A DNA stretch of 64,000 bases from IMG/VR virus record IMGVR_UViG_3300009788_000100. The stretch is one strand, 5' to 3'. Under the pieces are notes generated by a model. That model did not search any database. It had not been told where the DNA came from and was given only the letters and a program-made list of their open reading frames with translations. The stretch's first letter is position 1; each line of letters starts with the position of its first letter. Shown in pieces: positions 2,828 to 60,084 of the stretch. This DNA is from a virus (Duplodnaviria; Heunggongvirae; Uroviricota; Caudoviricetes). The translations under genes were made by a program, and so were the position numbers.

Positions 2828-2830
2828 GTT

Positions 2831-4069: not shown

Positions 4070-4076
4070 TTCGCTC

Positions 4077-5909: not shown

Positions 5910-5910
5910 A

Positions 5911-9424: not shown

Positions 9425-10515
9425 TTGTCCAAGAGACGTGGACTATACTGTTTGTTTTCTGCCATTACCGAAAAGTAACCACGAATAGACTCTTCGTGTT
9501 CGTGGAAGTACCTTAACCGGCGAAGACGTTCAATTAAATTAGGGAGCATTGCCACCGCTGCTTTTTTTGTCGGCTCTGACAACGCCCACCGAATACTACT
9601 TTTACTTGGAAGATCGTACTTTTTCTGAAATAGAGAAAACCCCGCACACTTGTTAAGTTCGCGCCAGTTAAGGCTCTCGCTTCGTGCGTCCTCGAATATC
9701 TCCCGAGATACACATAAAGCCAAACCCATAACCCCAGCAGCGTAATTTGGGTGCCGGAGATGAAAACCTCCCGGCGTTCTATATTCTACAGTACGATTAG
9801 TGATTCTAAAGTCGCCCGGCTTTCCGTACATCCCATTGCCGAGTCGGCGTAAGTTGGTATCCTCAAGAAGCATTGCTGGGATGCCTACAAAATAATCGAG
9901 CGCTGTAATAAAGCTTCTAACAAACTCTTTAGAAGCGACCGCTGCGCCTGTAGTAATTTCCCGAGGAGCTCCGATGTGAATGTGGAAACCTAAAGCATAG
10001 TTTTGCCAGCAGGAGTGCCCCTCCATGGTGACCTGGGAAGTGCCACCAAATTGATGCTCCATTAATACAGGTAGACAATGAATTAGCTTTCTTAAGTTTT
10101 CTACTACCTCTCGTTCGTGTTCTGCCGGAGAAGGTCTTAGTTCTGCTAATGGCCCGTCGCTGCCTACTAGACCTTTTGTAGGTAGCCAATAGTTGGCTGG
10201 CATAACTTGGCCTCTAGAGTCTATAAATACAAACTCTGGATCACACCCTAAAGTTACAATATCAGGGTCCGTAGGATTACCAACCACCAAGTCAAAGGTG
10301 TGCTGGCTTACCCAAGAGGCCCCTCTTTCCTTCGCTGCCTCCGCACTGTGGGCGTCGGCCACAACAACAGAGAGCTTACCCCCAGATTCAGTGCTTAGCG
10401 AAAGCTCTGCCCCGGGGTTTACTTTAAGCTTTGCTTTTTGTTTCGCCGATAGCCGGATTACACCATCTTCTCCCGCCTTCGACATTCTTGTACTTACTTG
10501 TAAGTCTAAGCGCAT
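9418..10515 (-). CDS. carboxylate-amine ligase (YbdK/GCS2-like 'amidoligase'), paralog 2
   Basis: 365 aa. LGCDPEFVFIDSRG and LGFHIHIGAPRE motifs shared with 2831..4069 and 30344..31267. Confidence 0.55.
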   Translation of the reverse strand: MRLDLQVSTRMSKAGEDGVIRLSAKQKAKLKVNPGAELSLSTESGGKLSVVVADAHSAEAAKERGASWVSQHTFDLVVGNPTDPDIVTLGCDPEFVFIDSRGQVMPANYWLPTKGLVGSDGPLAELRPSPAEHEREVVENLRKLIHCLPVLMEHQFGGTSQVTMEGHSCWQNYALGFHIHIGAPREITTGAAVASKEFVRSFITALDYFVGIPAMLLEDTNLRRLGNGMYGKPGDFRITNRTVEYRTPGGFHLRHPNYAAGVMGLALCVSREIFEDARSESLNWRELNKCAGFSLFQKKYDLPSKSSIRWALSEPTKKAAVAMLPNLIERLRRLRYFHEHEESIRGYFSVMAENKQYSPRLLDNW

Positions 10516-23820: not shown

Positions 23821-24215
23821 GTGGACCTGCTCGGAATCGAACCGAGGTCCGAACTACTTCAGTGTTGGGTGCTTTACTACGGCTATCTGTACCCAGCTTT
23901 GTGGACTTCATACCCTGTCCACGGTTTTTCTCCTATCTGGGAACCGACTTGAGGGTCTAATGGTTTAACGTCTTCTAGTAGGACGTACAGCGGTCCTGCT
24001 TGGGTAATAAGGTGAGGAGAGCCTACCCCACGCCGACTCTAGGCCGCGGCGAGCGCACGGGGCGCCGCCGTCCGATTGGTGTTAGCCACCATCGAAGCGA
24101 ACTTAACAAACGAGTTGCCAGTTATTGATCGGATAACCAAAGTTAAGGCATTTAGGTTCCAGTATGCCAGCCGAACTTGCCACCGAAAATAGCCCGTCGA
24201 AGCCAGTTCAGGCCC
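23821..24215 (-). ncRNA. ssrA: tmRNA (ssrA-like transfer-messenger RNA)
   Basis: Minus-strand RNA begins GGGCCUGAACUGGCUUCGACGGG (E. coli tmRNA: GGGGCUGAUUCUGGAUUCGACGGG). It ends with T-arm CUCGG-UUCGAUU-CCGAG and CAGGUCC-A, which pairs with the 5' GGGCCUG (one G-U). About 395 nt in a 400-nt ORF-free gap. No canonical ...ALAA tag frame identified by eye. Confidence 0.6.
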
Positions 24216-25288: not shown

Positions 25289-25936
25289 CTAGAGCTCATG
25301 CCCACAAACCCCATTAAGAAAATTCCAAATAATTGAGGTACCTGCTTGGCTGGAAGCATCTTTACCTAGATGTTCCGGGTGGAACTGTACTGCGTACAAA
25401 CCACGCTCTTCATCTTCCATAGCAGCGGCCTCTGTAGCTTCAGTAGTACCCGTAACGGAAAACCCCTCAGGAACAGTGGTTACTTTACAGACATGCGCCA
25501 TCCACACAGGAGCTCCCGCATCGGTAAAGTCTCGGAATAGTTCCGAGGGCTCCTCCGTGAAGTCCAGGTGGATTAGTTCTTTCTCCCGTTCGTGCATCCG
25601 TTTGACCTCGCCGCCAAAGTCCTTCGCCATTCGTTGCATGCCGTAGCAAATGCCAAGGACGGGGACACCAAGGGTGTAGATAGTTGTGTCCACCGTGGGC
25701 GCTTTGGGAGAATTGACGTATTCAGGAGAGCCGGAGATGAAAAGTGCCAGAGGGTTTAGTGCCGTTAGAACTTCGGCTGGCGTGTCGCTGGGCAGCAAAA
25801 TGGGGCGCAGCTTGAAGTTAATTAAAGTATCGTATAAGCTCTTGGTAAAAGAGGAACCACAGTAAAGAATAGGAACATTACGCATTGAATTTACTTTCCT
25901 CGCTGCCGTATCCGTGCAAGCTGCCGTGGCTTTCAA
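25289..25936 (-). CDS. class-I glutamine amidotransferase (triad GATase1)
   Basis: 215 aa. VPVLGICYGMQRMA (G-x-C-x-G nucleophile elbow) and VQFHPEHL (His-Glu of the triad). Confidence 0.65.
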   Translation of the reverse strand: MKATAACTDTAARKVNSMRNVPILYCGSSFTKSLYDTLINFKLRPILLPSDTPAEVLTALNPLALFISGSPEYVNSPKAPTVDTTIYTLGVPVLGICYGMQRMAKDFGGEVKRMHEREKELIHLDFTEEPSELFRDFTDAGAPVWMAHVCKVTTVPEGFSVTGTTEATEAAAMEDEERGLYAVQFHPEHLGKDASSQAGTSIIWNFLNGVCGHEL

Positions 25937-26438
25937 GTAATTGCTTTGCTAAGGGCGCATCGTAAATCTTTGCTAGCTGGTCGTGCGCGTATAGGTCCGC
26001 GTATAACTCTAACTCTGCGTGGCTCCAGAAGGGCGACAACTCTTCCTTACGGCAGTCCCAGTCAACGTGACCAACTTCATGGAGAAGAATAAACTCAGTC
26101 TCCATAGTAGTTAAGCCATCGACGACTTCGTTGAGCCAAATACCGCAGGACTTAGTATGCTTCTCCCACTCTTTCGCTTTCGCCGCCTTCATTAGGTAAC
26201 CCCAGTTGAGTCGGTAGGCCTTCGGAATAGCCACCAGCAGTTGCTCCACGGAGTAGTACTTAATCATTCTCTCTAGGAAGTCATCTTGAGTTTGAATAGA
26301 GATGTTGGTAACCATCGGAGGCACATTAGAGTCGGTAACTTTTTTGCCCAGCAAGTTTAGGGGCCAGTAAGTATGCGGCACAACGCGCTCTACCATCGCG
26401 TCGAGAACACTTTGAGTGAGTTTGGTGGAAGTTGTCAC
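25878..26438 (-). CDS. HEVGH zinc-metallopeptidase-like protein, paralog B
   Basis: 186 aa with FILLHEVGHVDWD. Sits between GATase1 and Cys-rich ORFs. Confidence 0.45.
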   Translation of the reverse strand: MTTSTKLTQSVLDAMVERVVPHTYWPLNLLGKKVTDSNVPPMVTNISIQTQDDFLERMIKYYSVEQLLVAIPKAYRLNWGYLMKAAKAKEWEKHTKSCGIWLNEVVDGLTTMETEFILLHEVGHVDWDCRKEELSPFWSHAELELYADLYAHDQLAKIYDAPLAKQLLESHGSLHGYGSEESKFNA

Positions 26439-26851
26439 TGGTTCCTCTCTTTTGGTAGATTTCCGCTGGAGATGAGGTCAAAAATTTCAGCTGCGTCAAC
26501 GTCTAAATTGTACTCTAGTTCCTTGTCGCCCAGCAAGTATTCTCCTAAGTCATAAAAGCCGGAGCAACTTAGTAATGGAATTCCGATCATTTGGCAAGCT
26601 TTATCGTAAGCTGCGGCCGACATCGCGGTCGTTTCGTGGCAACCGCAGTCGTTGACACAGGTTAACTGGAAGCCCCGCTTCTCATCATCGTCCCCATCCT
26701 TAGCAATGAAGGACACAGAGAAAACGCAATCCCAGGGTTCTCCCTGCCAGGCCTCGGCGTTGGGTAAGGAAGACCAAAGAGAACGTAGATTCTTATTCCA
26801 ACGGACAAGGTCACCAATGTTTAGGCAGTCAAAACTATCTATTGCCGACAT
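26435..26851 (-). CDS. hypothetical Cys-containing protein
   Basis: 138-aa ORF. Start overlaps the upstream stop. Confidence 0.3.
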   Translation of the reverse strand: MSAIDSFDCLNIGDLVRWNKNLRSLWSSLPNAEAWQGEPWDCVFSVSFIAKDGDDDEKRGFQLTCVNDCGCHETTAMSAAAYDKACQMIGIPLLSCSGFYDLGEYLLGDKELEYNLDVDAAEIFDLISSGNLPKERNQ

Positions 26852-27399
26852 GCCCGGTACCTTGTTTGAATTTCTACGGCTTGGTTGTAGATCTTCTCAA
26901 CTCCCGCGCCGCCAATTTTATTTGCGTTGGCGCCGCACTTGTAATTATCACAACAATTAAAGGTGCCCGTCCCATAAGCAAACGGTGGATAGATTTTTCC
27001 CGAAGTGCGGCAAGCTACACACAGATAGTGCCCCGCCCAGTCGCGCCAACAGGTATCATTATAGTGGCCGCATCCGTGGCAGTACTCGCTGTAGAGCTTA
27101 ACGATGAGGCTGCCCCTGGCGTCTACTCCCTCGGGAGATAAATCAATTCGGTACAGCTTCAAGTCCCCATGTTTTTTGTGTAAACTCCGATTAGTTGCGT
27201 TGGTGCAGGTTAACGTAAAGTAGTCTTTAGAGGGCATGCCACTTAAGACGTTTCTTTCGGTTACCTCTAAAATACAGTTGGCGCGCTGGATAAACTCCTG
27301 TCGCCTAGGACCCGAATACCTGGGTAAAAACTGCGGGTTCATCTGGTACGTTGCCCGCGGTACCAAAGTCGAGCAGTGCACGGGGTTGAGTATGATCAT
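26839..27399 (-). CDS. hypothetical Cys-rich protein
   Basis: 186 aa with YCHGCGHYNDTCWRDWAGHYLCVACRTSGK and NCCDNYKCGANANK clusters. Confidence 0.3.
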   Translation of the reverse strand: MIILNPVHCSTLVPRATYQMNPQFLPRYSGPRRQEFIQRANCILEVTERNVLSGMPSKDYFTLTCTNATNRSLHKKHGDLKLYRIDLSPEGVDARGSLIVKLYSEYCHGCGHYNDTCWRDWAGHYLCVACRTSGKIYPPFAYGTGTFNCCDNYKCGANANKIGGAGVEKIYNQAVEIQTRYRACRQ

Positions 27400-27684
27400 T
27401 TCAATTTTTCCAGTCCGCTCGCCAACGACTTTCGGTGTTTTTTAGTTTTCGTCTCTACTATTTTAACCTCGTCCACAGCAAGATCAGTCACTTGCATTAC
27501 GAAATGACTATCGTCCGCAATTTCAACTACGGGAGATAAATCCGCTCGGGAGAGCCCGGTTGTTTGGCTGCGGTTCCAGCGGAGGTACTCTTCCCAGGGA
27601 TCCCAGTTACAATGACTGCTTGCCTTTTTTTTTCGCTTGCTCGTTTTCACAGCGGCTTCGACCCTGTCCCGGCGCCGCTGCTTC

Positions 27685-28128
27685 TTACTCTGGCTTACTA
27701 CGCCGTACACCGGGTTTTCTCGACTGTCGCTTTTTGCTTTTGGGTTTCTGACGGCTCTTTTTTTCTTCGACAACTTTCTCTAGCGGTTCTTCTTGCCGTC
27801 CCGAAATCTCTTTTCCCTCGCCATTTTTATTTTCCCTCGTTGCCTTTAACCTCTCTAGGCGACCACGCGTGAAAGCAGCGTTGAAGTAACGCTGGAAAGC
27901 AACGGGGTACTCCTTGCGTCGGCGCTCAATTTTAGCTTCAATGCCCTCTGTTCTTTTAACAACCATCATGTCCCCTACAAAGATGGCCGTGTCTCTTAAA
28001 TCTTTAATAAAAGCGTAGGCTTCTGCCTGCTGCCGAAGTAGCTTTTTCTCACGCTCTGTTAGCTTCATCGGCATCTCGTTCCGTGTAAGGTATGATATAG
28101 TGTTCCACGAGTTGCTGCACATAGTCAA
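27685..28128 (-). CDS. hypothetical basic protein
   Basis: 147-aa ORF, K/R/E-rich tail. Overlaps the 27396..27773 ORF, so one boundary is wrong. Confidence 0.25.
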   Translation of the reverse strand: MTMCSNSWNTISYLTRNEMPMKLTEREKKLLRQQAEAYAFIKDLRDTAIFVGDMMVVKRTEGIEAKIERRRKEYPVAFQRYFNAAFTRGRLERLKATRENKNGEGKEISGRQEEPLEKVVEEKKSRQKPKSKKRQSRKPGVRRSKPE

Positions 28129-28783
28129 CTGCGGGTGCGCTTTCCGGCATCCACTCCGGGTGAAACTGCATACCCAGAGCTTTAATTTTCGGGTACCACA
28201 CTACGTCCGGTTCCGTCTTCAACTGCGCGGAAGCTGCGTCGATATCAATAACAGATTCCGCATCAAACGCGTAGTGCATTGAATAAGGCTTCGGACTCCA
28301 CGCCAGTACCTCAAAGTCACCGGTTGGTAGATCCCAAGGATATTGCATTTGGTGGTGATCCCCCTTCACCATTAATTCCTGAATGTAGCCCTCAGGGAAG
28401 CGTGCTGTTACTGGGTGGGTGCACATCCCATGATTGGTGACATCTTGAAGTAGCTTTCCCCCCGCCATCACACAGAGGAGCTGTGCTCCTCGGCAAATAC
28501 CTACCATCGGTACTCCGTGCGCTTGGGCGGTGTCAAAGACATTCATTTCCTCTACATCACGCGCAAAGTTAGAGAAAGTTGCGGGGTGCTTAGCCCGGTC
28601 ATAAATTTCCGGGGATACGTCGGCTCCCCCGGTAAAAACAACCATCGCGACTTGTTCTGGGGTTCGCTGAAGAATCTCCGGATCATCGGTATACTCGAAC
28701 CCGAAGGTGTGGAAGGGCCGAGAATGATTTCGAGGGGAGTCGTTAACTACTAATAGTTTTTTCAAAAGTGACATTACGGCCAT
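28049..28783 (-). CDS. class-I glutamine amidotransferase-like protein
   Basis: 244 aa. HGVPMVGICRGAQLLCVMAGG (G-x-C-x-G) and LGMQFHPEWM (H-P-E). Confidence 0.6.
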   Translation of the reverse strand: MAVMSLLKKLLVVNDSPRNHSRPFHTFGFEYTDDPEILQRTPEQVAMVVFTGGADVSPEIYDRAKHPATFSNFARDVEEMNVFDTAQAHGVPMVGICRGAQLLCVMAGGKLLQDVTNHGMCTHPVTARFPEGYIQELMVKGDHHQMQYPWDLPTGDFEVLAWSPKPYSMHYAFDAESVIDIDAASAQLKTEPDVVWYPKIKALGMQFHPEWMPESAPAVDYVQQLVEHYIIPYTERDADEANRA

Positions 28784-29657
28784 TTCTTTTTAGCTGTTCG
28801 ACAAGCTCCGCTGCACGTTTAAAGCTCCCGGAGGCAATAACCGGGTAGACCTCGCTCGAGAGCATCATTTCGGGGTTGGAAACGATAAAGCGTCGCGGGG
28901 GGACTGTTGTACCTGTCTGCCAACCCCACATGAGTGATCTTTCGTTGATGCACGCCGTTTTGAGGTGGCGGTCATCGATTTCTTCAGGACAGTGGGTTAA
29001 GCGATGCATTTGCAGCACTATCCCTAGGTCGCAACCAGCATTAGCTGGGTGGGAACCAAGCCCTGGAATGCTAGTGGAGAAAGGATAGAGCGACTGGTCA
29101 AGGTAACCAACGTGGTCTCGGTGACAATAGGCGATTGCCGCCCAGGGGTCGCAACCCGCTTCGTCGATTAGTTGGGTGCCGTGAAGAACAATACCAATCC
29201 CTTCTCTAATCCAACGTAACCAGCACAACTGCATATAAATACGAGGGATAATCGCCTCGGCGGCATCTAGGTCAATGCGAATTCCCTCTCCGGTTACCAA
29301 GCTTTTGGCAGTTTGCTTTAGGGGAAGTAGGCCGATAGCTTGCCCTATTTCCGCCCAGCGAATACAATGGGCGAGCGGGACCGGTACGCTGCCATCCTCT
29401 TCCACCGCCTGGTGCGGGCAGTATGTTAAGTATCTTGTGGCAGGGCGGTTTTTAAGGTAGTTACCTAGGTCTCCAAAGCAAGCACGGTTTTGAGTCTCCA
29501 GCAATACTTTATCATCCGCATCGCGAAGGTAGTACTTCACGGCATACTTAGGAGTTTTGTAGCGTTTTGACTGTACCGCAGCGAGAAGCCGACGTATTGT
29601 TCTATCCGGAAATAAACGCCGCATCAATTCCGCATTTAGAAGCGCACTTGTAACCAC
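28743..29657 (-). CDS. hypothetical protein (candidate Cys/His enzyme)
   Basis: 304-aa ORF with AGCDPWAAIAYCHRDHVGY. No family assigned. Confidence 0.35.
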   Translation of the reverse strand: MVTSALLNAELMRRLFPDRTIRRLLAAVQSKRYKTPKYAVKYYLRDADDKVLLETQNRACFGDLGNYLKNRPATRYLTYCPHQAVEEDGSVPVPLAHCIRWAEIGQAIGLLPLKQTAKSLVTGEGIRIDLDAAEAIIPRIYMQLCWLRWIREGIGIVLHGTQLIDEAGCDPWAAIAYCHRDHVGYLDQSLYPFSTSIPGLGSHPANAGCDLGIVLQMHRLTHCPEEIDDRHLKTACINERSLMWGWQTGTTVPPRRFIVSNPEMMLSSEVYPVIASGSFKRAAELVEQLKRNGRNVTFEKTISS

Positions 29658-30148
29658 AACTTCCTCTTACATTTCTTAAAGCCGTTGTTAATGAAACACT
29701 GAACTTTTTTATCGTAGTTATTCTTTAGGACACGAAAGCCCCAGTTATAGTGCCCCCACCAGGGGTGTGGTCGGTGGCAGTTTTTAATCCCCCTCCACTT
29801 GCCGTACTTTTTGTAACCACATTTTCCTGTACTACTATACAGTTTAACGCAGAACTTAGTATGTTGTTTCTCCCAGTAGAGCAATTCTCTCGCGGCTTCC
29901 CTTACAGAGGCCTTATCGCTGGGCATTTTGGGGCGGGTATCTGAAGTCGTGGTGCGGTGGTTTTGACAAAAACCAATGTCCCAACTTTTGTTCTTATTGC
30001 GGTGCCACTTTTTACTGCCGTTGCCGCTTTCGTAGCGGCAAATACCCTCTAGCACAGCAGCATCGACCCCGTACTTCTTTGCGGTCGCCTGGAAGTAAGT
30101 ACCGCTAAGTGCGGCTAGTGCTATAATGGCGCTAAAAAGGTATGGCAA
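29636..30148 (-). CDS. secreted lytic transglycosylase (SLT/lysozyme-like) domain protein
   Basis: 170 aa. N-terminal signal peptide (MPYLFSAIIALAALSG), GVDAAVLEGICRYESGN with catalytic-type E-S, then IGFCQ (compare GLMQ). Confidence 0.5.
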   Translation of the reverse strand: MPYLFSAIIALAALSGTYFQATAKKYGVDAAVLEGICRYESGNGSKKWHRNKNKSWDIGFCQNHRTTTSDTRPKMPSDKASVREAARELLYWEKQHTKFCVKLYSSTGKCGYKKYGKWRGIKNCHRPHPWWGHYNWGFRVLKNNYDKKVQCFINNGFKKCKRKLWLQVRF

Positions 30149-30343
30149 ATCTACTCCTTGCTTAGGTTGTCACTGCCCAGCTCCGCCAGTTCTCCAATTG
30201 CTTTTACGGAGAGCCAAAAAGGAGGTAAATCCGACCCGGGCTCGTGGACACGATAAAAGCGACCATATTCGTTATATAAGCCGCTGTATTCGACAGTGGT
30301 GTTGTTGTCCCGTAAAATCTGAACCGCATCGCCAAAGAGCACC

Positions 30344-31267
30344 TTAAAATTCCCAAGCTTGAGAAAGCTCGGCGGCAGGCATCGTATCCACTTGCTCTAT
30401 TCTATTGTGAAGCTCTTCATCCAACAACGGGTGGAGGTGTTCTTCGTAGAGTTTTCGAGCCGTCGCGATGTCAGACTCGTTGATGACCCGCTGCAGCTCT
30501 TCCGCGCCACCGAGATCCTCGATGAGCTCGACGAAAAGCTCTTCGTCAAGAGCAACTGCAAGCGCTTTGGCACTCAAGTCATAGATGAGGTGGGTGTGTT
30601 CTGGCGTAGCCAGCCACCACGAGCTGCAGGCCCGGTATTCAACCCCGTATGTTTTGGGGCGGTGCGCGCCCGCCTTTCCATAGAGGCCGCGCCGCGCCGC
30701 CGCCGTCACATCCTTGTCTAAGAAGACACTCATAAGACCAACAAAGATATCAAGAGCCTTAACGACCCTCACTTTGCCCAAACCACTTTCGTCAAGCAAC
30801 AGCTCCGCTAACTCTTTGTCTTCTTTGTGCGCGCCGATATGAAGGTGCCCGCCGGCGGACCGGAAGGGCTTGTGCGCCGCGTCAGCGGGAACGTGGTTGA
30901 TCGCTAGTGCGTAAGCATCGAAGTCGGGGTCACAGCCGAAGGCGCTCGCTTCGTAACCTTGGAGCTGGCTGTTCGGAAAGTTAGCCGAAGCTTGTAACAG
31001 CAGTTCGGTGTTCTTTGCTGCCGCTAAAGAAGAAATTTCCTTTAGCGCTGTTCCTATAATAGCGGTAAACTTTTCAGGAGTATCCGCCGGAATGGTGTTA
31101 AACTCGATGAGTACGTTGTCATGCAAAACAGCACCACCAGTGGCCAACGGCCGGGGCGCCATCTTACCTTCCGCAATCACGGGGATTGCGGAGCGTAACT
31201 CCTTAGTCTCAGGGTCCCTTAAGAAAAGTTCGGGGTCTGAGCCTAACAAAAAGCGAACCGTCTCCAT
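30344..31267 (-). CDS. carboxylate-amine ligase (YbdK/GCS2-like 'amidoligase'), paralog 3
   Basis: 307 aa. LLGSDPELFLRDPE at the N-terminus and SAGGHLHIGAHKED. Same motif pair as 2831 and 9418. Confidence 0.55.
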   Translation of the reverse strand: METVRFLLGSDPELFLRDPETKELRSAIPVIAEGKMAPRPLATGGAVLHDNVLIEFNTIPADTPEKFTAIIGTALKEISSLAAAKNTELLLQASANFPNSQLQGYEASAFGCDPDFDAYALAINHVPADAAHKPFRSAGGHLHIGAHKEDKELAELLLDESGLGKVRVVKALDIFVGLMSVFLDKDVTAAARRGLYGKAGAHRPKTYGVEYRACSSWWLATPEHTHLIYDLSAKALAVALDEELFVELIEDLGGAEELQRVINESDIATARKLYEEHLHPLLDEELHNRIEQVDTMPAAELSQAWEF

Positions 31268-36156: not shown

Positions 36157-36840
36157 CGTTTTTTCCGCCTTCTCTCCGATGATGAACCCAGTCTGTGAAC
36201 AAATAAATGCCCGCTGTTACTAAAATATAAGGAATAAACAGCCAACTGGTAGTACCCTCTATAGCGAAATAAATAATCCAAAAGGTCGCTAAGAGTACAT
36301 TTAGTTTTGCTGCGTAAATGCAGGGGGGATACTTCAACGGTATCTCACAACCGTACAACGAAAAGTGTCAGCAGCTTCAGCAACAGTTGGTCGCCCTGAC
36401 TCTGCCCAAGCGATTGGGATGTACGCCTCTTCCCCCGGCTTGTTGAGAGCTTTTAAGTTAATGTGTAGCGCCCAATTCCCATCTCCGGAGCAGCTCCAGG
36501 GAACCACTTCGAGGATGTCGTTACCTTTCCAAAAGTTTAACACGAAGTCAATATCTTCTTTAGTCCCCCCACGTAGGAATAAAATCAACTTGGTGACCGA
36601 AATAGAATCAACACTAAGCATAGTCATACCGAGGTACATTAGTTTTCCTCAGTTTTTAGCGGTAATTCAACATAGTAAAGACGGTCAAACTCGGGAAGGG
36701 TTAAAAGCTTGGTTTCTTTTTTGACAAAACTATGTACGCTCACTCTATTGTCGTCTCTTTTTTCTCCGACGAAATACGCGACTAGCGTTTCTTTATCAAC
36801 TACCCTATCGCCTCTTTTCATATGTTGCCTTTTGATTTAG

Positions 36841-36905
36841 CGTGCCGTGTGGGATTCGAACCCCGGAGTCTGCCATCTACAGAACGCTCCTCACATCCGC
36901 AGCAC
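36841..36905 (-). tRNA. tRNA-like element, non-canonical (possible tRNA pseudogene)
   Basis: Minus-strand GGGGUUCGAAUCCC T-loop motif. The acceptor-like 5' GUGCUGC pairs with 3' ACGGCAC with mismatches. Only about 65 nt; the T-stem is interrupted by an ACA bulge. Confidence 0.3.
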
Positions 36906-37019
36906 TGAAGCTTGCCCGTCCCCGAGACAGGAGCTCTTAATTGCGCGCTGCTGCTTTCCCTGGGCAAGGTGGGGATCAGACCCGCGCCCTTACCATTTTT
37001 TAAGCTAACGGCACAAACA

Positions 37020-37096
37020 ACAATCGCCTTGGATTCGAACCAGGCCTTCTGAGACTAAAGAGGACTCAGGTGTGCGTTACCACCACACTCCGATTG
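37020..37096 (-). tRNA. tRNA-like gene with abnormal anticodon arm
   Basis: Minus strand. Acceptor CAAUCG/CGAUUG (6 bp plus one mismatch), D-arm UGUG-GUGGUAACG-CACA, T-arm CCUGG-UUCGAAU-CCAAG. The anticodon arm is CUGAG/CUCAG with an 11-nt loop UCCUCUUUAGU (or a 7-bp stem with loop CUCUUUA). Isotype not assignable. Confidence 0.4.
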
Positions 37097-37860
37097 TTGC
37101 ATACTTTATGTCAGGTTGTCGTAGTACTCCTTGAGCTCGATGCTCTCGCGGCGCCCAGCAAGCAGAGGCCAGGCCATAATGAGCGCAGCGCAGGCGACGC
37201 CAAAGAGGCCCCAGCCCTTCGAATCGAAAGAGGCATAGACCACCAGACCGACAGCAACAGCGGTGCCCACTGATATCAAGGCGACCAGCAGGATAACACT
37301 TGTGTGCAGCAGTTTATTGTTAGTGATGCGTAAGTTCATACTTGTTCCTCTTTGAGTTAAGCGGCGCCCTCGCCGACTTCAACGATGCCCTCGGAGTCTA
37401 CACTTAGCCAACACCCCACCAACGTAAACATCAAGACCGTTTTCTTGCCAACGTTGTGGATAGAAACGCTGATGTTGGGGTAGTTTTCTAAGTTTGAGTC
37501 TAAAAGAGCGCTATAAGCCGACGCTAGAAGGGTGTTAAATGTTGCGGGTGTAAAGTAGTCCGCCGCTTCAGTGAAGGGGCCCTTTATCTCATCGTTAGTG
37601 TAGAGCCTGCCGCGGTAAATTGAACCAGACATTACTTATCCACGGGAATTATTAGTATTTCTAGCTTCGTTCCCGATTTAAACTTCTCCCTCATCTCAAC
37701 AGGAATATCGACTTTGAAAGAGTTTTCATCACTAAACCCCTCCTTATCAAGGGAGATAGTAATATTAGCGGGGGCCCCGGGAGAATCACCCTTTGGCCAA
37801 GTCATCATGTATACCCAAGCTTTAGTTTTTAGAGCTTTCACTCCTACCATCTCCTTTTCT

Positions 37861-37900
37861 CCCCACAAAAAGAGGGCAGCCGCTGAAGCGGCCACCCTCT
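37861..37900 (-). terminator. rho-independent terminator after the SPFH-lipoprotein gene
   Basis: Minus strand reads AGAGGGUGGCCGC-UUCA-GCGGCUGCCCUCU (GC-rich hairpin) followed by UUUUUGU, a few nt downstream of the stop at 37908. Confidence 0.55.
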
Positions 37901-37907
37901 AAGAAAG

Positions 37908-38759
37908 TTAATTACTGATTAGAATCCCCGGCGATGTGCCCCCGGTGATGATAACTTTATCACCTGGCGCAACTTTGCTGTAAAGCAACGCGGCGGCCTC
38001 GATGCGCCGCACTGAGAGGTAGGCTGGCGTCAGAGATTTGGCGAGGATGACGTTGTAGGCAGCCTCAGCTTGAGCTTCTGCAGCTCGCACGATCCTCATC
38101 TTCTCGGCGATCTTCATGCGGTTGTCGGCGCGCAAAACCTCCATCTGTTGTTTCGCGACCTCTTCTTGTAGCTCAATCTCCCGCTTCCGCTTCTTCTCCA
38201 TCGCATTGGTAATGACTTCGGGATAGTCGAGGTTGGAGGTAACAACCATCGTAATCTCGACCGGGGTACCCTTAAGGGCAGCTCGCAAGTCCTTGGCGAT
38301 TACTTCCTGAATTTCTGCTCGCCGCTCGCGAATATCTGTCGTCGAGTACTGCGAAACGTAAAAGCGAGTGATGGAGCGAGCCTGGGGACGAACGTAATTG
38401 TTGTAGAGGACGTCGAAATCTAACACCCCCTTCTTCATTTTCGAACCCTGGTTGTTGAGTACGGCGCGCATCCCCTCCCCATCAGTGACGGCCAAACGAG
38501 CACGGACTTTGAGGTCGAACTTCATGTTGAGCTCGTCCTTGCAGAGCACGCTCATCTTCTCTTTGTAGGTCGTTTCTGAGGTCTCGATGAGCAGCATCTC
38601 GCAGCGACCGTAGCAAGTGTGACGACCGGGCTGCAGGGCTTCAGCTTGGATGCCGCTGGGTTCCTGCCGCACGCCGATGAATCCGGGTGGGACAACTTCG
38701 TTACACCCAAGGGTGTAAAGACTGCAGAAAGCAATAAGGGCGATGATGAGTTTGTTCAC
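37908..38759 (-). CDS. SPFH/band-7 (prohibitin/HflC-like) domain lipoprotein
   Basis: 283 aa. MNKLIIALIAFCSLYTLGC lipoprotein signal, band-7 core, and C-terminal coiled-coil (REIELQEEVAKQQMEVLRADNRMKIAEKMRIVRAAEAQAEAAYN) typical of the SPFH family. Confidence 0.6.
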   Translation of the reverse strand: MNKLIIALIAFCSLYTLGCNEVVPPGFIGVRQEPSGIQAEALQPGRHTCYGRCEMLLIETSETTYKEKMSVLCKDELNMKFDLKVRARLAVTDGEGMRAVLNNQGSKMKKGVLDFDVLYNNYVRPQARSITRFYVSQYSTTDIRERRAEIQEVIAKDLRAALKGTPVEITMVVTSNLDYPEVITNAMEKKRKREIELQEEVAKQQMEVLRADNRMKIAEKMRIVRAAEAQAEAAYNVILAKSLTPAYLSVRRIEAAALLYSKVAPGDKVIITGGTSPGILISN

Positions 38760-39196
38760 TTAGTTCCTCCGTCGGGTTGGTACTGCTTGAGTTTATCTTG
38801 GAGAGCCTTGTCGGTCTCCTTTTGGATTTGATCGTAGTCCTTCTCCCACTCTGGCGTTGGCGCCGGGGCAGCATCGGGACGCAGCTGTTCTTGCTGCTTC
38901 TGAGTTTCGGTGACACCATCGCCACCAGTGCCGGTGTATGTATTCTTTGCGGGTTCTCCTGGGCCATAAGCAGTGAAGAAAAGGAAGAAACAAAGGGCTG
39001 CTGGTGCGGCTAGCCACACTACCTTCATTATTAGCTGACCGGGTGTGTAATTTTCCCAAACGTCACCGTTGTCAACGTCGGCGAAGAGGTCATAGATTTT
39101 GAGCAGGGAACGTCCCACCAAGAAGGTGAAGAAGAGGGCGCCGGCGAAGCTAACCCAGGCGACGATGTCAGTGCCGAAGTTAGTAATGGTGGACAT
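38756..39196 (-). CDS. membrane protein
   Basis: 146 aa with two hydrophobic segments and a P/T/G-rich linker. Confidence 0.35.
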   Translation of the reverse strand: MSTITNFGTDIVAWVSFAGALFFTFLVGRSLLKIYDLFADVDNGDVWENYTPGQLIMKVVWLAAPAALCFFLFFTAYGPGEPAKNTYTGTGGDGVTETQKQQEQLRPDAAPAPTPEWEKDYDQIQKETDKALQDKLKQYQPDGGTK

Positions 39197-39668
39197 GCTT
39201 GTTGTTCTCCGTTTCTTTCAGGTAAGTATCGGCTGCTTCTTGATAGGTACAAGGCGTAACTACATTCAAGTCGTTCGCGTTAAGAATTGCCTCCCACACG
39301 ATGCAGTCGGCCCCGTTTGCGAAAGCTGCTATACAGATTTCTCCTTCGGGGTCGCAAACCCAGGCGGTGTAGTACACATCGGAGGAGGCGCAGGGACCCC
39401 CACGCTTACCCTCTCCCCAAACCCTCTCGTTACGGGTGTACTTTGCGCATGCCCCCATGCCAAGGAAACAGCGGGTGTCCTTCTTTGGGCTTTCCGTACA
39501 GCTCCAAAATTCTTTCAGGGCCTCATCCCTGTTCGGGGGAGTGTCGCTGTTGACGCACCCTGCGACAAGCGCCAGTGTGATAGCTAGGAGTGTTAGTTTC
39601 ATTGAACTCACGTGTAGGTAGTTAATTATTGGTCCTCTTATTTGTTGCGACCGAAACCGAAAATTCAA
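39180..39668 (-). CDS. secreted Cys-rich lipoprotein
   Basis: 162 aa. MKLTLLAITLALVAGC lipobox and 10+ cysteines. Confidence 0.4.
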   Translation of the reverse strand: MNFRFRSQQIRGPIINYLHVSSMKLTLLAITLALVAGCVNSDTPPNRDEALKEFWSCTESPKKDTRCFLGMGACAKYTRNERVWGEGKRGGPCASSDVYYTAWVCDPEGEICIAAFANGADCIVWEAILNANDLNVVTPCTYQEAADTYLKETENNKHVHHY

Positions 39669-40424
39669 CCACCATTTGTTCGCACATCAATAACTGCGCT
39701 CACCTTACCGAGCTTTTATCGTGAAGTGAAACTCCAAACGGTCGCTGCTACCTACGGTGTACTCGTATAAATCTTGGGTGACAGATTCTAGAGTTAGGGT
39801 AGTACGCTTTAGCCAATCAAGGGCCTCTTCGTTTCCTCGCAGGCGATACTTTAGAATTCCCACCTCTTCCCTCGCCTTCTTGAAGGCTTCTCTGGTGTCG
39901 ATGGCGTCGATTGTAAAACGCTCTACGGTTTCTTCCATCTTACTTCTCCTGCAGTATCATCTCGCACAGCTCTCGACACAAGCGACTGCATTTAGTTTCC
40001 ATGCGTTGGAGAGACCGTATCTCTGCGTTTCTTTGAGTGCGGAGTCGTTCTATCTCCGCAATAAGGCGGAGCGCATCGCGGGGGGACCAGGGGTAAAGAA
40101 AGCCGTACTCCTCCAGAAGCTTGAGTTCTTTTTGAGTTAGGTTCTGCTCACGCGTTCCTTTTCCCATCGGTAATATATACCTCTTTTACATTTTCTTGAG
40201 GATGTGTTGGAGGTCGTCGAGGTAATCTCGTGCCCACTGCAAAGCGGATCGCTTCGCACTTTCCTCGCTAGCTAGGTCTCTACAAAGCCACAGTTGGTTT
40301 CGACCGGCATCGAGGACTAACACTGTCCAGCTCCCATCAAGCGCTTCATAAGCTCGTAAGCTGAGCATAGAACCAATATCGAGGACATTGCTATTGACCC
40401 CCCGTTTTCTCCAAGTAAAGTAAC

Positions 40425-40967
40425 TCATCTCTTTGCTATTGCCTTGTAGTTTTTGTGGTCGGGGTTAACTTTAAAATCGCTAAGCACTCCCTTATGCTCG
40501 CCGTTAGCGAGGATCTTTACACCTACACAATAGGCTCCCCAGTAACAGGAAAGTTCATAGCGCATTGCCGCTTCAGTATAAGCCTGGAACCAACCATCGA
40601 AGAGTTTATGTTGGCGTAGAAGCGTTACCCCCTCTACCCACGCCAATTGCTCCCTTTTGTAAACTTCGCTGTCAATTGTGTACTCTGTGCCGTTGTCGTG
40701 GCGGTAAACAGCCATAGGTTGGGGGCAGAAAGGTTGGTTGGTAAAATCAATGCAGTGGCCAACCTCGTGAGTTAGTAAGGCGGCGGTGGCTAGCGGGCTC
40801 CGCTCGCCCATTTGAATGTAGTTGATCTTGTTATACCAAACACCATCGTCAACATCAATGTACGAAAGACTGACATTACTACGGTAGATATCAGATGTTT
40901 CTATGGGCCAATGCTTCTGCTCGCAGTAATCCACGAGAAAATCAAGTACTTCTTTTGATGTAGTCAT
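40425..40967 (-). CDS. HEVGH zinc-metallopeptidase-like protein, paralog C
   Basis: 180 aa with AALLTHEVGHCIDF. Confidence 0.45.
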   Translation of the reverse strand: MTTSKEVLDFLVDYCEQKHWPIETSDIYRSNVSLSYIDVDDGVWYNKINYIQMGERSPLATAALLTHEVGHCIDFTNQPFCPQPMAVYRHDNGTEYTIDSEVYKREQLAWVEGVTLLRQHKLFDGWFQAYTEAAMRYELSCYWGAYCVGVKILANGEHKGVLSDFKVNPDHKNYKAIAKR

Positions 40968-40974
40968 TTACTTA

Positions 40975-41055
40975 GTCCCCCAAATGGGATTCGAACCCAC
41001 ACGACCTTACAGTCAGGTGTTTAAGGTGGGGGGGGGGAGGTTTGGATACCTCCCC
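40975..41055 (-). tRNA. tRNA-like element with intact T-arm/acceptor 3' half and aberrant 5' half containing a C11 homopolymer
   Basis: Minus strand. T-arm GUGGG-UUCGAAU-CCCAU, 3' acceptor UUGGGGG-A. The upstream part holds the hairpin GGGGAGG-UAUCCAAA-CCUCCCC and an 11-C run (plus strand G11 at 41029-41039), with no D-arm. Confidence 0.3.
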
Positions 41056-41162
41056 ATTAGTTCCTAGCTCTTTTGGAGCAGAAGTCGTAAAGACTTGCAT
41101 TAAGCTTTGGACACTTAACAAAAGGCAAAACACCTCAGAAGAACTAATCCCCGTAGTTTTAG

Positions 41163-41235
41163 TGCAGCGAGGGGGAGTCGAACCCCCACGATCTTTCAAT
41201 CAACGGATTTTCTTACCAACTACAGTTTTCACTGC
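41163..41235 (-). tRNA. tRNA-like gene, 73 nt, good acceptor and T-arm but no recognisable D/anticodon cloverleaf
   Basis: Minus strand. Acceptor GCAGUGA/UCGCUGC (one G-U), T-arm GGGGG-UUCGACU-CCCCC, discriminator A. The internal 39 nt (contains UAGUUGGUAA D-loop-like string) do not fold into standard arms. Confidence 0.4.
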
Positions 41236-41350
41236 CACGGTAAACGTGTTTGTGGTCTGGACTTTATCTTTACCATTTCCCTAAAGTTATATTATTCTTA
41301 GAGAGGCAGGTAGATGCCGTCAAGTCTCTACACCTTCTTAAGGAGAGTAT

Positions 41351-41827
41351 ATGAAATGGACCTGGAGAACTAAAACTTTAGAGCAGGTTAAGGATGCGGT
41401 AGCAAAATCCACTTCCTACTGCCAGGCTTTAAACCGATTAGAGCTTAGAGCTGCTGGCGGTAACTACGCTTCTCTAAAGCGAGCAATCAAAGAACATAAC
41501 ATAGATGCCTCCCATTTCCGTGGTCAAGGTTGGAGGAAAGGAAGAACGTTTCCTCCCAAGCGCTGCTTGGAAGAGTACCTCACCAATAAGTTTCCCCTTC
41601 AATCTCACAAACTTAGGCTTCGCCTCCTCTCTGAGGGGGTTTTTAAACCCGTTTGTAGCAATTGTAAGAGAAAAACCTGGTTAGGTAGTCCAATCCCTCT
41701 TGAACTAGAACACATTAATGGGGACAATTTGGATAACAGCCTAACAAACTTGTGTTTGCTGTGTCCTAATTGCCATGCGCTTACACCGACCTATCGAGGT
41801 AAGAACAAAGGAAAACCATCTCCTTAA
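41351..41827 (+). CDS. HNH homing endonuclease
   Basis: The only convincing plus-strand gene. 158 aa with ELEHINGDNLDNSLTNLCLLCPNCHALT (HNH) and CSNCKRK zinc knuckle. Sits inside the tRNA cluster. Confidence 0.7.
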   Translation: MKWTWRTKTLEQVKDAVAKSTSYCQALNRLELRAAGGNYASLKRAIKEHNIDASHFRGQGWRKGRTFPPKRCLEEYLTNKFPLQSHKLRLRLLSEGVFKPVCSNCKRKTWLGSPIPLELEHINGDNLDNSLTNLCLLCPNCHALTPTYRGKNKGKPSP

Positions 41828-42385
41828 GCTTGGCTCGGTATTGCCATTACTAAAGGGTTCACCGAGTTTGACATCTTCTACTCCCGGGGTTTCCCCCGGG
41901 GCACTCAAATTTTACTTAAGTCCGTCGTGGCTACCATTACACCACCGCTGCATAGTCCCAGTCAATTGACTCTGCCAATTGGTCTACCGGGGGTTTATTT
42001 ATCTTTTTGTGCACGCAGCCAAAGCACTTGGTGTTTAGGTTGACCTACACCTACACATTTTACTTTAGTGGAAGCTATATGAGGTTCAAGAGCATTCCCC
42101 TTCGAGAATCCAACTTTTCGTCCACACCAAGGACACTTTATCTTCTTTTTATTCGCGGGCACAAGTTACTATAAAGAATAGGGATTGCATGCTTTGCAAG
42201 GGCAATAGAGATGAAGAAACTTGGGCCAGTCTTTACGAGGAATGCCTTCTTCCTTCAACCTTTGGTAGTAAGCTTGGATAGCGCAGTTCTTTTTAGGGTT
42301 TTCGTCTGCCCAGTGTTCCTTTTTATGTACCCACTGCTTTACTTTATTCTTTTCATCCTTTGGCATGTTTTTCTCTCTTGTTGGA

Positions 42386-42455
42386 TCGGGTGCAGGGAAT
42401 CGAACCCCAGTCCTCAGGACCAAAACCTGATGTCTTACCTCTAGACGACACCCGA
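42386..42455 (-). tRNA. tRNA-Gln (anticodon UUG)
   Basis: Minus strand. Acceptor UCGGGUG/CACCCGA, D-arm GUCU-AGAGGUA-AGAC, anticodon arm UCAGG-UUUUGGU-CCUGA (U33, anticodon UUG, G37), T-arm UGGGG-UUCGAUU-CCCUG. CCA not encoded. Confidence 0.8.
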
Positions 42456-53171: not shown

Positions 53172-53837
53172 TTACTGAATTTGCTTAGAGTGCTCATTGA
53201 AATCCTCTTCGTCGATAATCTTGAAGCCTCGTTTTTTGTATTTTTCAATTCTATGCATTAACGAAGCTAAACACACTGTGTCGGTACAGCGTAGTGTTCT
53301 CGTTTTCATGTCGTTTAGCGCGGTTCTGTTACTAACCGTTTCACCGTTTAAAACAGCTATTTGACAGATTGAGAGGTCAAATCGAGACAACATAAAAGCA
53401 ATTTTACTTTCTAAGTTGCCTGCATAAATATCGGTATGGGCTTTAATGACCTGAACTTTACGATAGACGTCAGCGGGGTGTTCAAAATTATCGCAGTGGG
53501 GAAAATCATCGACTCGCTTATAGCCCAAGTTCACTAGCGTATCTTGAGCTGTAAGGATGCATGTTTTTGATAGCGGAAAGATGTCTACATCTCCGTAAGC
53601 TACAGCTAAGTATGCTCCTAGGACAGCTCCCCCGGCGATTGGGACTTCAGTGCCCTTGAAAGCCGAGATGAGTTCTTCTAACTGCGGTATTTTGACAGCT
53701 GGTTTCCAAGGCTGGGCACACCAAGTATAATCAGTGGGGAAAAGGAAGTCCTCTGTTTTACTGTAGCGTTTGTGGGAGGCTTTCTTCTCTTTTGCAACCT
53801 GGTTAAAGAGGTAAGAAAATGTTTTGCTGTAGCTCAC
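53172..53837 (-). CDS. Pol-beta-superfamily nucleotidyltransferase (CCA-adding/poly(A) polymerase head-like)
   Basis: 221 aa. PIAGGAVLGAYLAVAYGDVDIFP parallels the class-II CCA enzyme head YLVGGAVRDLLLGRPPKDIDLV (GG...DxD). Shorter than full CCA enzymes. Confidence 0.45.
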   Translation of the reverse strand: MSYSKTFSYLFNQVAKEKKASHKRYSKTEDFLFPTDYTWCAQPWKPAVKIPQLEELISAFKGTEVPIAGGAVLGAYLAVAYGDVDIFPLSKTCILTAQDTLVNLGYKRVDDFPHCDNFEHPADVYRKVQVIKAHTDIYAGNLESKIAFMLSRFDLSICQIAVLNGETVSNRTALNDMKTRTLRCTDTVCLASLMHRIEKYKKRGFKIIDEEDFNEHSKQIQ

Positions 53838-59319: not shown

Positions 59320-60084
59320 TTATCCCTCTTCAACGTCTACAAGTTGTTGTATGTAGCCCCTGTCTTTACTAAATCTGGGAATGTCATTATCCTCTCCCCA
59401 GCTGTGGCGCGCAGTTGATACTACTTCGCCGTTTTGTACCACTTTTTGGAGAGAGGCGCCTCGTGTGATACAGAGTCCCCGCTTCTGTACAGTGGGGCAG
59501 GCATTCCAGTTGATCTCTCTCTGCAGCATCAACATATCCTGCATCGCCCCAAAGTCCTTTCCATGCAACTCCTTGTGGCTGAAGTGGGCCTGGGCCAGAG
59601 AAGCGACGGAGTTACGAGACGCATCCTGTTGCCGCCAAATAAAGTAATTGACTACCTCCTCCTTTGGTAAATTAAAAGCGCGGCAATCAAAGAGCCCCAT
59701 GATGCCACGCTCAGGGAAGACACGCAGAAAGAGGCTGTTGAAGCTGGCCGTAGCGATGCTGGCCGCCACTGAGCACATCTTCTGGACGCGGTTACCAAAC
59801 CAGGGCTGTGTTTGTAGGGTCCGGTAGTTTACCAGTAGGAGAGAAATTTCATCCGATTGTGTGTAGGCAATCTTAGCACCATCGATGTTTTCACACAGTG
59901 TCTGTGCAGTTAGTGCCATGCATTCATTGAAACGCCAGTCAATCGGTTTATCCATGCCCCTGGTTAAAGTGTGGAAAGCCTTACCATCGAGGCGGAGGAT
60001 GACCGGCATGCGGGGGACAAGGTAGCTGTCGGGGACCCCCTCATACTTCTTCATGCGGTTGCCGAGACTTGTTCTATCGCTCAT
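59320..60084 (-). CDS. Thg1-like protein (tRNA 3'-5' nucleotidyltransferase; tRNA-His guanylyltransferase family)
   Basis: 254 aa. YEGVPDSYLVPRMPVILRLDGKAFHTLT (compare Thg1 VVVRLDGRNFHRF), KIAYTQSDEISLL (compare AYGQSDEYSFVF), NYFIWRQQD (compare DYLSWRQAD). Confidence 0.75.
   Translation of the reverse strand: MSDRTSLGNRMKKYEGVPDSYLVPRMPVILRLDGKAFHTLTRGMDKPIDWRFNECMALTAQTLCENIDGAKIAYTQSDEISLLLVNYRTLQTQPWFGNRVQKMCSVAASIATASFNSLFLRVFPERGIMGLFDCRAFNLPKEEVVNYFIWRQQDASRNSVASLAQAHFSHKELHGKDFGAMQDMLMLQREINWNACPTVQKRGLCITRGASLQKVVQNGEVVSTARHSWGEDNDIPRFSKDRGYIQQLVDVEEG

Follow-up and report, generated by a model that had tools for sequence, protein, structure and literature searches.

What are the elements of a phage genome that end like transfer RNAs (tRNAs) and do not fold like them? 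This question is raised by positions 36,841 to 42,455 of a 64,000-nt stretch of IMG/VR virus record IMGVR_UViG_3300009788_000100 (Caudoviricetes). The stretch, hereafter the window, is a segment of a large-phage genome with nearly all of its genes on the minus strand. A first-pass annotation, made by a model from the letters of the sequence, had noted a clean tRNA-Gln(UUG) here and four aberrant elements with intact T-arm and acceptor ends, referred to below by position as the 36841, 37020, 40975 and 41163 elements. The follow-up analysis suggests a divided answer. The 41163 element is almost certainly ordinary, being part of an intron-split tRNA-Leu(UAA) gene, and its oddity an artefact of detection. 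The 40975 element is very probably the 3' half of another tRNA gene, which has been split, while the 36841 and 37020 elements, which stand in tandem, derive from tRNA genes. As a whole, the locus is read with reasonable confidence as a tRNA islet of a large phage of about 49% GC (48.8% in the window), in which two working decoder tRNAs stand among tRNA-derived debris. It is an ordinary kind of phage tRNA region, if an untidy one, and of moderate interest.

The common thread is a set of six minus-strand T-loop motifs, at 23834 (in a transfer-messenger RNA, tmRNA), 36853, 37032, 40988, 41175 and 42397. These are real and non-random, as had been claimed: the strict 12-mer GGRTTCGAHTCC has four minus-strand copies against 0.03 expected by chance, and the tmRNA and 37032 copies are matched by a relaxed T-loop pattern, not by the strict 12-mer. 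Only the tmRNA and tRNA-Gln are called by ARAGORN at its default setting and by Rfam at the gathering threshold, so the others are real tRNA-like 3' ends that standard tools miss. The tRNA-Gln(UUG) gene (42382-42455, minus strand, CCA encoded) is indeed canonical by ARAGORN, by Rfam (RF00005, 57.5 bits) and by R1, our own covariance model built from 104 phage tRNAs and used as a gauge of tRNA-likeness (64.6 bits).

On the R1 scale, eight tRNAs of phage T4 reach 33-83 bits and T4 rnaC (species 1 RNA) 14.2 bits. The 41163 element scores 25.9 bits, the 40975 element 16.7, the 36841 element 10.5 and the 37020 element 10.4. The last three fall short of a canonical cloverleaf, taken here as a threshold score, a 7-bp acceptor, a 5-bp T-stem, a 5-bp anticodon stem and a 7-nt loop, and ARAGORN calls on them appear only at -ps80 to -ps95. 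The first-pass annotation had allowed that its hand folding might be wrong and that covariance models might recover all five tRNA-like genes as standard cloverleaves; they do not. Its description of four aberrant elements holds for these three, whose T-arm and acceptor are intact and whose core is non-canonical by R1 and Rfam, and fails for the 41163 element, which is a normal exon.

The tRNA-Leu(UAA) gene and its group I intron

With introns allowed, and at its default threshold, ARAGORN finds a tRNA-Leu(UAA) gene at 41162-41951 (minus strand), interrupted by a 706-nt intron between U34 and A35. The 5' exon (41918-41951, minus strand; also found by a profile match) runs from G1 to U34, reads GCAGCGG-UG-GUG...CAC-G-ACGGA-CUU and supplies the 5' strand of the acceptor, the D-arm, the 5' strand of the anticodon stem and C32, U33 and U34. 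The 3' exon (41162-41211, minus strand) is the 41163 element. It reads AAAA-UCCGU, followed by the variable arm GAUU-GAAA-GAUC, the T-arm and UCGCUGC-A, and thus contributes A35 and A36, the 3' strand of the anticodon stem, a long variable arm, the T-arm, the 3' strand of the acceptor and A73. Taken alone, it is a partial tRNA match of 21.7 bits (25.9 on R1). The 41163 element appeared to have no D-arm because it is the 3' exon of a split gene; the D-arm sits about 740 nt upstream, in the 5' exon (41951-41918).

The intron itself (41212-41917, minus strand) is assigned to the IC3 type of group I introns by ARAGORN, homologue alignment, covariation and a profile. It has a U.G pair at the 5' splice site in P1, a terminal G (...GGUAAG) and enlarged P6 and P8 elements. 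ARAGORN places the junction at gactt-intron-aaaat, and the spliced exons would read ...GGACUU followed directly by AAAAUCCG.... The classical tRNA-Leu(UAA) intron site, 'Leu.3Ug', is CUU/a...g/AAAA (10.1101/2020.01.27.920355). Like the classical cyanobacterial and plastid IC3 intron, that of the window has the U34/A35 site, the U.G pair at the 5' splice site, the terminal G and the conserved core. Unlike it, it lies in a phage genome, carries a 478-nt P6-loop insertion with an opposite-strand HNH gene, has an enlarged P8 and escapes the Rfam model RF00028. By eye, it also resembles the Azoarcus and Anabaena introns.

The likeness to the classical intron rests on homology and covariation with 14-37 relatives from viral contigs. 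The IC3 core motif AAGGTGTAGAGACTNGACGG matched at least 120 viral contig loci (L006-L125). Among the matches listed, about 85 loci carry intron-split tRNA genes according to ARAGORN: 47 are tRNA-Leu(UAA), with 37 distinct sequences, and the remainder are called as Tyr, Arg (including UCU), Met, Lys, Ser, Thr, Pro and other isotypes. With a tetraloop in place of its open reading frame (ORF), the window gene shares 70-76% identity, over about 290 nt, with the 37 distinct intron-bearing viral tRNA-Leu(UAA) genes listed. An RNAalifold consensus of 15 genes contains 73 pairs, 44 of them with compensatory changes, and recovers the helices P1 (with the U.G at the splice site invariant in all 15), P2, P3, P4/P5, P8 and P9. 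In addition, a profile built from 14 other viral genes matches the window at 41947-41820 (E 7e-28) and again at 41341-41163 (E 7.5e-31), the match breaking between profile positions 132 and 133, which is the P6 loop.

The 478 nt between the two profile matches are filled by an ORF at 41351-41827 on the plus strand. It encodes an HNH homing endonuclease of 158 aa (phrog_10822, E 1.2e-45; Pfam HNH_3, E 1.4e-3, a weak match below its cut-off) and lies in a peripheral loop of the intron but on the strand opposite to the host gene, antisense to both tRNA and intron. The AAGGAG of its ribosome-binding site is complementary to the 3' strand of P6. The first-pass annotation had described this gene as interrupting a tRNA cluster; since it is located in the P6 loop of the intron, it belongs to the intron instead. 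From homology, the group I intron would self-splice from the tRNA-Leu transcript, and the HNH enzyme would cut intron-less tRNA(UAA) genes of co-infecting phages and so spread the intron. Nuclear ribosomal DNA (rDNA) group I introns with antisense homing-endonuclease genes are known (PMC9548176). There, as here, the endonuclease gene is opposite in strand to the ribozyme and the host gene, whereas the enzymes are of the His-Cys box type and the hosts eukaryotic rDNA, in place of an HNH enzyme in a phage tRNA intron. In the literature consulted, no description was found of an antisense homing-endonuclease gene in a phage or bacterial tRNA intron, and little on this intron family in phage tRNA genes.

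Several points count against this account of the intron. An antisense homing-endonuclease gene is unusual in an intron of bacterial type, no promoter was found for the HNH gene, and both splicing and endonuclease activity are predicted from homology. Furthermore, the Rfam model Intron_gpI (RF00028) returns no intron match at the gathering threshold or at E ≤ 10, a search of an 811-nt slice included. The same model is also blind to the homologue in the 735-kb uncultured phage LR756501 (L001), which is 205 nt long and lacks an ORF, so the miss probably reflects a limit of its sensitivity. Homologue alignment, covariation and the independent profile were therefore used in place of the Rfam test.

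In the window, 52% of Gln codons are CAA and 16% of Leu codons are UUA. For a GC-rich host, this would fit tRNA-Gln(UUG) and tRNA-Leu(UAA) in the usual role of codon compensation. More broadly, default ARAGORN and Rfam missed a sound tRNA-Leu gene because of its intron. The same intron family was found in tRNA genes of many isotypes, by the ARAGORN assignments, on no fewer than 85 viral contigs. The tRNA repertoires of phages are therefore under-counted in a systematic way, and group I introns in phage tRNA genes seem common.

Other unusual tRNA genes were seen among the relatives. Short-variable-arm (class I) tRNAs with the Leu anticodon UAA are called by ARAGORN on contig L005 (137-211) and on several viral contigs, and some of these genes also contain this group I intron (L015 and L053, for instance). 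Beside a normal tRNA-Ile, LR756501 (130-197 of L001) has a weak tRNA-like gene that scores 28.3 bits; its D-arm is degenerate and its loop, CUGUAAA, is Tyr-like.

The 40975 element and its probable upstream partner

The 40975 element (40975-41033, minus strand) matches R1 through its acceptor and T-arm only. It consists of a hairpin (ACCU-GACUGUA-AGGU), a T-arm (GUGGG-UUCGAAU-CCCAU), the 3' strand of an acceptor (UUGGGGG) and A73. For the protein encoded immediately downstream (40425-40967), a single divergent relative was found, with 69% identity, on the 788-nt ENA contig L005 (ERZ27251120), which has an intact tRNA with anticodon UAA where the window has the 40975 element (Rfam 57.4 bits; also an ARAGORN call). 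Positions 4-35 of this tRNA (acceptor, D-arm, 5' strand of the anticodon stem, C32 and U33) align to 41990-41960 of the window and positions 49-67 (T-arm) to 41002-40984. Because the two pieces align collinearly to the intact tRNA, they are read as one gene split after U33.

The 5' half, placed at 41952-41993 (minus strand) by this local alignment and by synthetic joins, reads CCCCCGG-UA-GACC AAUUGGCAGA GUC-A-AUUGA-CU and is separated from tRNA-Leu by an 8-nt spacer. Its CCCCCGG (41993) pairs 7/7 with the UUGGGGG of the 40975 element and is the only strong, GC-rich partner within 1.5 kb. When the halves are joined in silico, 81 of 1924 junction combinations pass ARAGORN at its default setting. 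No join passes with any of 15 shuffled 5' halves or with any of 20 other natural 42-mers, and 0-6 pass when the acceptor is kept and the rest shuffled.

The gene is split directly after C32-U33 in the anticodon loop, and about 930 nt lie between its halves. This gap holds the entire cassette of tRNA-Leu, intron and HNH gene, then a spacer of about 130 nt and then a cytosine run. The spacer (41034-41161, minus strand), from the 3' end of tRNA-Leu to the 3' half, is predicted to form multiple hairpins, including a 10-bp helix (AUUAGUUCUU/AGGAACUAAU) and GGGGAGG/CCUCCCC (fold z-score -2.47). At 41108-41087 it contains a candidate relic of an anticodon arm, with a weak alignment to that of the L005 tRNA. 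No relatives of the spacer were found by blastn against 50,697 phage genomes or against 120 fetched loci, and Rfam, profile and core searches found neither a second group I core nor a ribozyme core in it. The run, previously counted as G11/C11, is C10 on the minus strand (G10 on the plus strand; 41028-41037) and is the sole homopolymer of G or C that reaches 8 nt in the 64-kb window. It varies between strains, being one base shorter in contig L002 and reading CCCCTCCCCCCCCC in L004, while L003 ends beside it.

How did the gene come to be split? The break lies within 1-2 nt of the insertion site of this intron family, where its endonuclease presumably cuts, and the likeliest cause would be illegitimate repair or recombination triggered by the endonuclease. 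A tRNA gene torn at the homing site of an intron, with the gap filled by an intron-bearing cassette, looks like a fossil of endonuclease-driven damage, and illustrates how homing endonucleases can remodel tRNA islets.

The 3' end of the gene exists as two alleles at 40977-40990: GGGTTCGAATCCCATTTGGGGGA in the window and L002, and GGGTTCGACTCCCACCTGTCCCA in L003 and L004 (two JGI samples). They differ at 7 clustered positions (L003 1-30; L004 420-446) in contigs that are otherwise at least 99.8% identical, a pattern suggestive of a patch of recombination or conversion. For the second allele, there is no pairing partner in the 1.5 kb upstream and, in a check for host origin, no exact match was found in 185,579 species genomes. 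Given that two 3' alleles exist and that one of them is unable to pair with the 5' half, the split gene is probably a dead relic. Decay to a tRNA pseudogene, one of the explanations offered at first pass, accounts best for the 40975 element and ranks among the leading readings of the 36841 and 37020 elements; it does not apply to the 41163 element, an exon of an intact tRNA-Leu gene. What speaks against a relic is that the window-type allele still pairs 7/7 with the 5' half. Scans of viral and metagenome contigs found no uninterrupted allele of the split tRNA.

A second view is that the split gene still works as a tRNA inside a tRNA intron, with tRNA-Leu cut out by RNase P and RNase Z and the halves pairing in trans or being ligated. 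In its favour, the in-silico joins show the halves to be fully compatible, and RNA-repair enzymes are frequent in large phages (PMC7824862). There is also a precedent of sorts in the Lak megaphages, whose tRNA genes have 'enigmatic introns', one of them predicted to contain a tRNA (10.1101/356790). As in Lak, a large phage has oversized or pseudo tRNA genes, with another tRNA inside the intervening sequence of a tRNA gene. However, the inner tRNA of the window has its own group I intron and endonuclease gene, the outer gene looks broken and not spliced, and the Lak insertions have not been classified as group I. Moreover, the joins give no convincing anticodon stem, the best having 4/5 pairs, the anticodon CCA and a C at position 37. 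No ribozyme core is present in the intervening sequence, pairing with the 5' half is impossible for the alternative 3' allele, and no RNA ligase was identified in the window. A functional split tRNA is accordingly held to be very improbable, and the preferred reading of the 40975 element remains that of a relic.

Could the aberrant elements be assembly artefacts or chimeras? The end of contig L003 falls within the 40975 element, at 41005, and the length of the homopolymer differs between assemblies. However, four samples (Logan SRR5210996 and the JGI samples 3300024265, 3300009488 and 3300028835) independently gave contigs with the arrangement of the locus, at no less than 99.8% identity, and the region of the 36841 and 37020 elements is identical in all of these. 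The probability of an artefact is negligible.

The tandem pair at 36841 and 37020

The remaining two elements lie in tandem on the minus strand, 3 nt apart, between co-directional ORFs. The 37020 element (37017-37099) is tRNA-shaped, and its fold has a z-score of -3.05. The predicted cloverleaf has a terminal helix of 9-10 bp, a 5-bp D-stem with GG in the loop, an anticodon-like stem of 7 bp with one U.U mismatch and the loop CUCUUUA, and a T-arm with either a C.A mismatch or a bulged A. An 11-nt anticodon loop had been described for it, which is one way to draw this arm; another is the 7-nt CUCUUUA on the 7-bp stem.

At relaxed thresholds only, ARAGORN calls the 37020 element tRNA-Lys(CUU), and a working, odd-shaped tRNA decoding AAG has some attraction: the call comes with a full cloverleaf, a 7-nt loop with U33 and GG in the D-loop, the fold is far from random, and AAG makes up 47% of the Lys codons in the phage. 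Such a tRNA is nonetheless improbable. Its R1 score is 10.4 bits with an anticodon arm that cannot be aligned, and both Rfam and default ARAGORN miss it. The terminal helix, at 9-10 bp, and the anticodon stem, at 7 bp, exceed the canonical lengths, the T-stem has its mismatch or bulge, and position 37 is a U.

The 36841 element (36841-37014) is a 174-nt RNA that begins 3 nt downstream of its neighbour. Its 5' end is that of a textbook tRNA (GUGCCGU-UA-GCUU-A...UGG), and it has an exact GGGUUCGAAUCCC hairpin and a terminal helix with 7/7 Watson-Crick pairs. Only 3 bp form the T-stem, and the interior holds about 100 nt of additional sequence. The R1 score comes from the T hairpin only, the fold z-score is -1.72, and the minimum-energy fold closes the acceptor around four arms. 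The ACA bulge formerly attributed to its T-stem is one of two readings; the other is a 7-bp acceptor with a 3-bp T-stem, the acceptor being closed in the fold.

Several candidate identities were tried and rejected. The 36841 element is recovered neither as an intron-split tRNA (none of about 3000 joins passes default ARAGORN) nor as a circularly permuted one (0/1590 inner-segment joins pass at default or at -ps90), and no group I core was found in it. Rfam returns nothing for either element even at E ≤ 10 (331-nt search). No Rfam match at this threshold places the aberrant elements in a Y RNA, tmRNA-like or ribozyme family. In particular, a bacterial Y RNA (YrlA) acting with Ro/Rsr finds neither a Y RNA match in Rfam nor a TROVE (Rsr) protein among the roughly 40 window ORFs scanned, which are not all of its ORFs. 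Suppressor or frameshifting tRNAs, another early proposal, found no support: the loop of the 37020 element reads CUU, the other loops cannot be assigned, no credible loop holds a stop-complementary anticodon, and the long ORFs read intact in the standard code.

An oversized tRNA-like gene comparable to the 36841 element was seen in contig L097 (6942-7126). This 185-nt gene stands in a phage array of 32 tRNAs and has a normal acceptor, D-arm, T-arm and CCA. About 107 nt are inserted close to its anticodon arm, and this insert is not of group I.

What, then, are the two elements? They retain what RNase P, RNase Z and CCA-adding enzymes recognise, namely a paired terminal helix stacked on a T-arm. 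Having lost a decodable core, they most likely no longer decode, and normal decoding is very unlikely. That they are relics is about an even chance. Recent relics that are still cut from the transcript are slightly more likely than RNAs with a dedicated function.

The reading as relics has to face a good deal of order. The T-loop 11-mer is exact in both elements, the terminal helices are perfect (7/7 in the 36841 element and 9/9 in the 37020 element), the 3-nt spacing is typical of a tRNA array, and the 37020 element folds far better than shuffled sequences. To these is added a shared trailer: CUAA directly follows the discriminator in tRNA-Leu (41156-41162) and in the 36841 (36834-36840) and 40975 (40968-40974) elements, all three of them CCA-less. 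This 4-mer has a frequency of 0.0045 per position, and the shared trailer was noticed after the fact. Together, these features amount to more order than random decay predicts. It must also be set against this reading that no divergent relatives were found: the searches, by blastn against the 50,697 phage genomes and the 120 fetched loci, by protein-anchored scans of viral contigs, by exact-pattern scans of viral and metagenome contigs, and in three large protein searches, returned only strains at least 99.8% identical, or nothing.

The shared CUAA hints at a common 3' processing context. Beside it, the trailer of the tmRNA is CUGA, and UAU precedes tRNA-Gln, tRNA-Leu and the 37020 element. The CUAA trailers and UAU leaders may be shared processing signals.

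A tentative alternative is that the two elements would be functional, non-decoding tRNA mimics, cut by RNase P and RNase Z and stable like the T4 species 1 and 2 RNAs, or would serve as processing punctuation for the flanking mRNAs. The exact T-loops, perfect terminal helices and 3-nt spacing fit this as well, as do a U at position -1 and the trailer that the 36841 element shares with the genuine tRNA-Leu. Further support comes from T4, whose tRNA array ends with rnaC (species 1) and rnaD (species 2), near the gene of the homing endonuclease SegB. Both phages thus have a tRNA array containing a homing-endonuclease gene and, at the same position at its end, two tandem small RNAs that are not tRNAs and lie a few nt apart. 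T4 rnaC also pairs an exact GGGUUCGAAUCCC T-arm with a terminal helix, and its 14.2 bits on R1 resemble the 10-17 bits of the 36841, 37020 and 40975 elements. Both elements match species 1 RNA in architecture. The 36841 element in particular combines a place inside a tRNA array, or at its end, with a terminal helix, a canonical T-arm and a core that is not that of a tRNA.

The parallel has limits. No sequence similarity to rnaC was seen beyond the T-loop (by inspection, with no formal alignment made), the T4 endonuclease is a free-standing GIY-YIG enzyme whereas that of the window is an intron-borne HNH enzyme, and rnaC folds much more stably (z -4.6 vs -1.7). Against functional mimics, too, are the lack of relatives in the genome, contig and protein-anchored searches, the 36841 fold that is only marginally more stable than shuffles, and the neighbouring split tRNA, a relic that also keeps a perfect acceptor and T-loop.

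A narrower form of this idea is unlikely, in which the two elements, perhaps along with both halves of the split tRNA, would be expressed tRNA mimics, processed by RNase P and RNase Z, with a dedicated job. Such RNAs may act as a sponge for host tRNA-targeting nucleases, serve Thg1-like or nucleotidyltransferase repair enzymes, or punctuate polycistronic mRNAs. If this were true, the elements would join the unexplained class of the T4 species 1 and 2 RNAs (the T4 record gives no function for species 1), and the class would be widespread in large phages. Should such RNAs recur in unrelated large phages, comparative analysis could address their role.

Repair genes and genome context

The idea that the elements serve phage enzymes can be set against the gene content of the window. 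As the first-pass annotation had it, a Thg1-like protein of the tRNA-His guanylyltransferase family is encoded (59320-60084, minus strand; Pfam Thg1, E 1.4e-31; phrog_4717, E 2.1e-92). At 53172-53837 there is a weak nucleotidyltransferase match (phrog_1614, E 6e-4), whose product may be the enzyme described earlier as 'CCA-head-like'. Thg1 and CCA-adding enzymes are among the RNA-repair accessories of jumbo phages (PMC7824862). These two genes, and the acceptor and T-arm mimicry that the elements have kept, are what recommends them as substrates or scaffolds for the phage enzymes, or as decoys for host nucleases that target tRNAs. However, the Thg1 gene is 17-22 kb away, with no genomic linkage and nothing to tie it to the elements. 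Neither the 36841 nor the 37020 element has 5' acceptor mismatches in need of repair, and none of the anticodon loops presents a known nuclease target in register. A decoy or substrate role is highly improbable.

An integration (attP) site was also considered and rejected. The scan of approximately 40 ORFs of the window showed no integrase, and the genome, with an RNA polymerase of its own, has the look of a large-phage genome. Among the genes identified in the window are those for an RNA polymerase beta-like protein, a helicase, an SPFH protein, an M50 peptidase and a radical SAM protein.

Two further features lie outside the tRNA region. Genes for phiEco32-type COOH-NH2 ligases, ATP-grasp proteins and glutamine amidotransferases are clustered at 1838-10515 and 25289-31267, which suggests a modification pathway that forms peptide or amide bonds. 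The sixth T-loop belongs to a one-piece, phage-encoded tmRNA at 23821-24215 (minus strand; ARAGORN; Rfam RF00023, 65.3 bits), the tag peptide of which is GNSFVKFASMVANTNRTAAPRALAAA.

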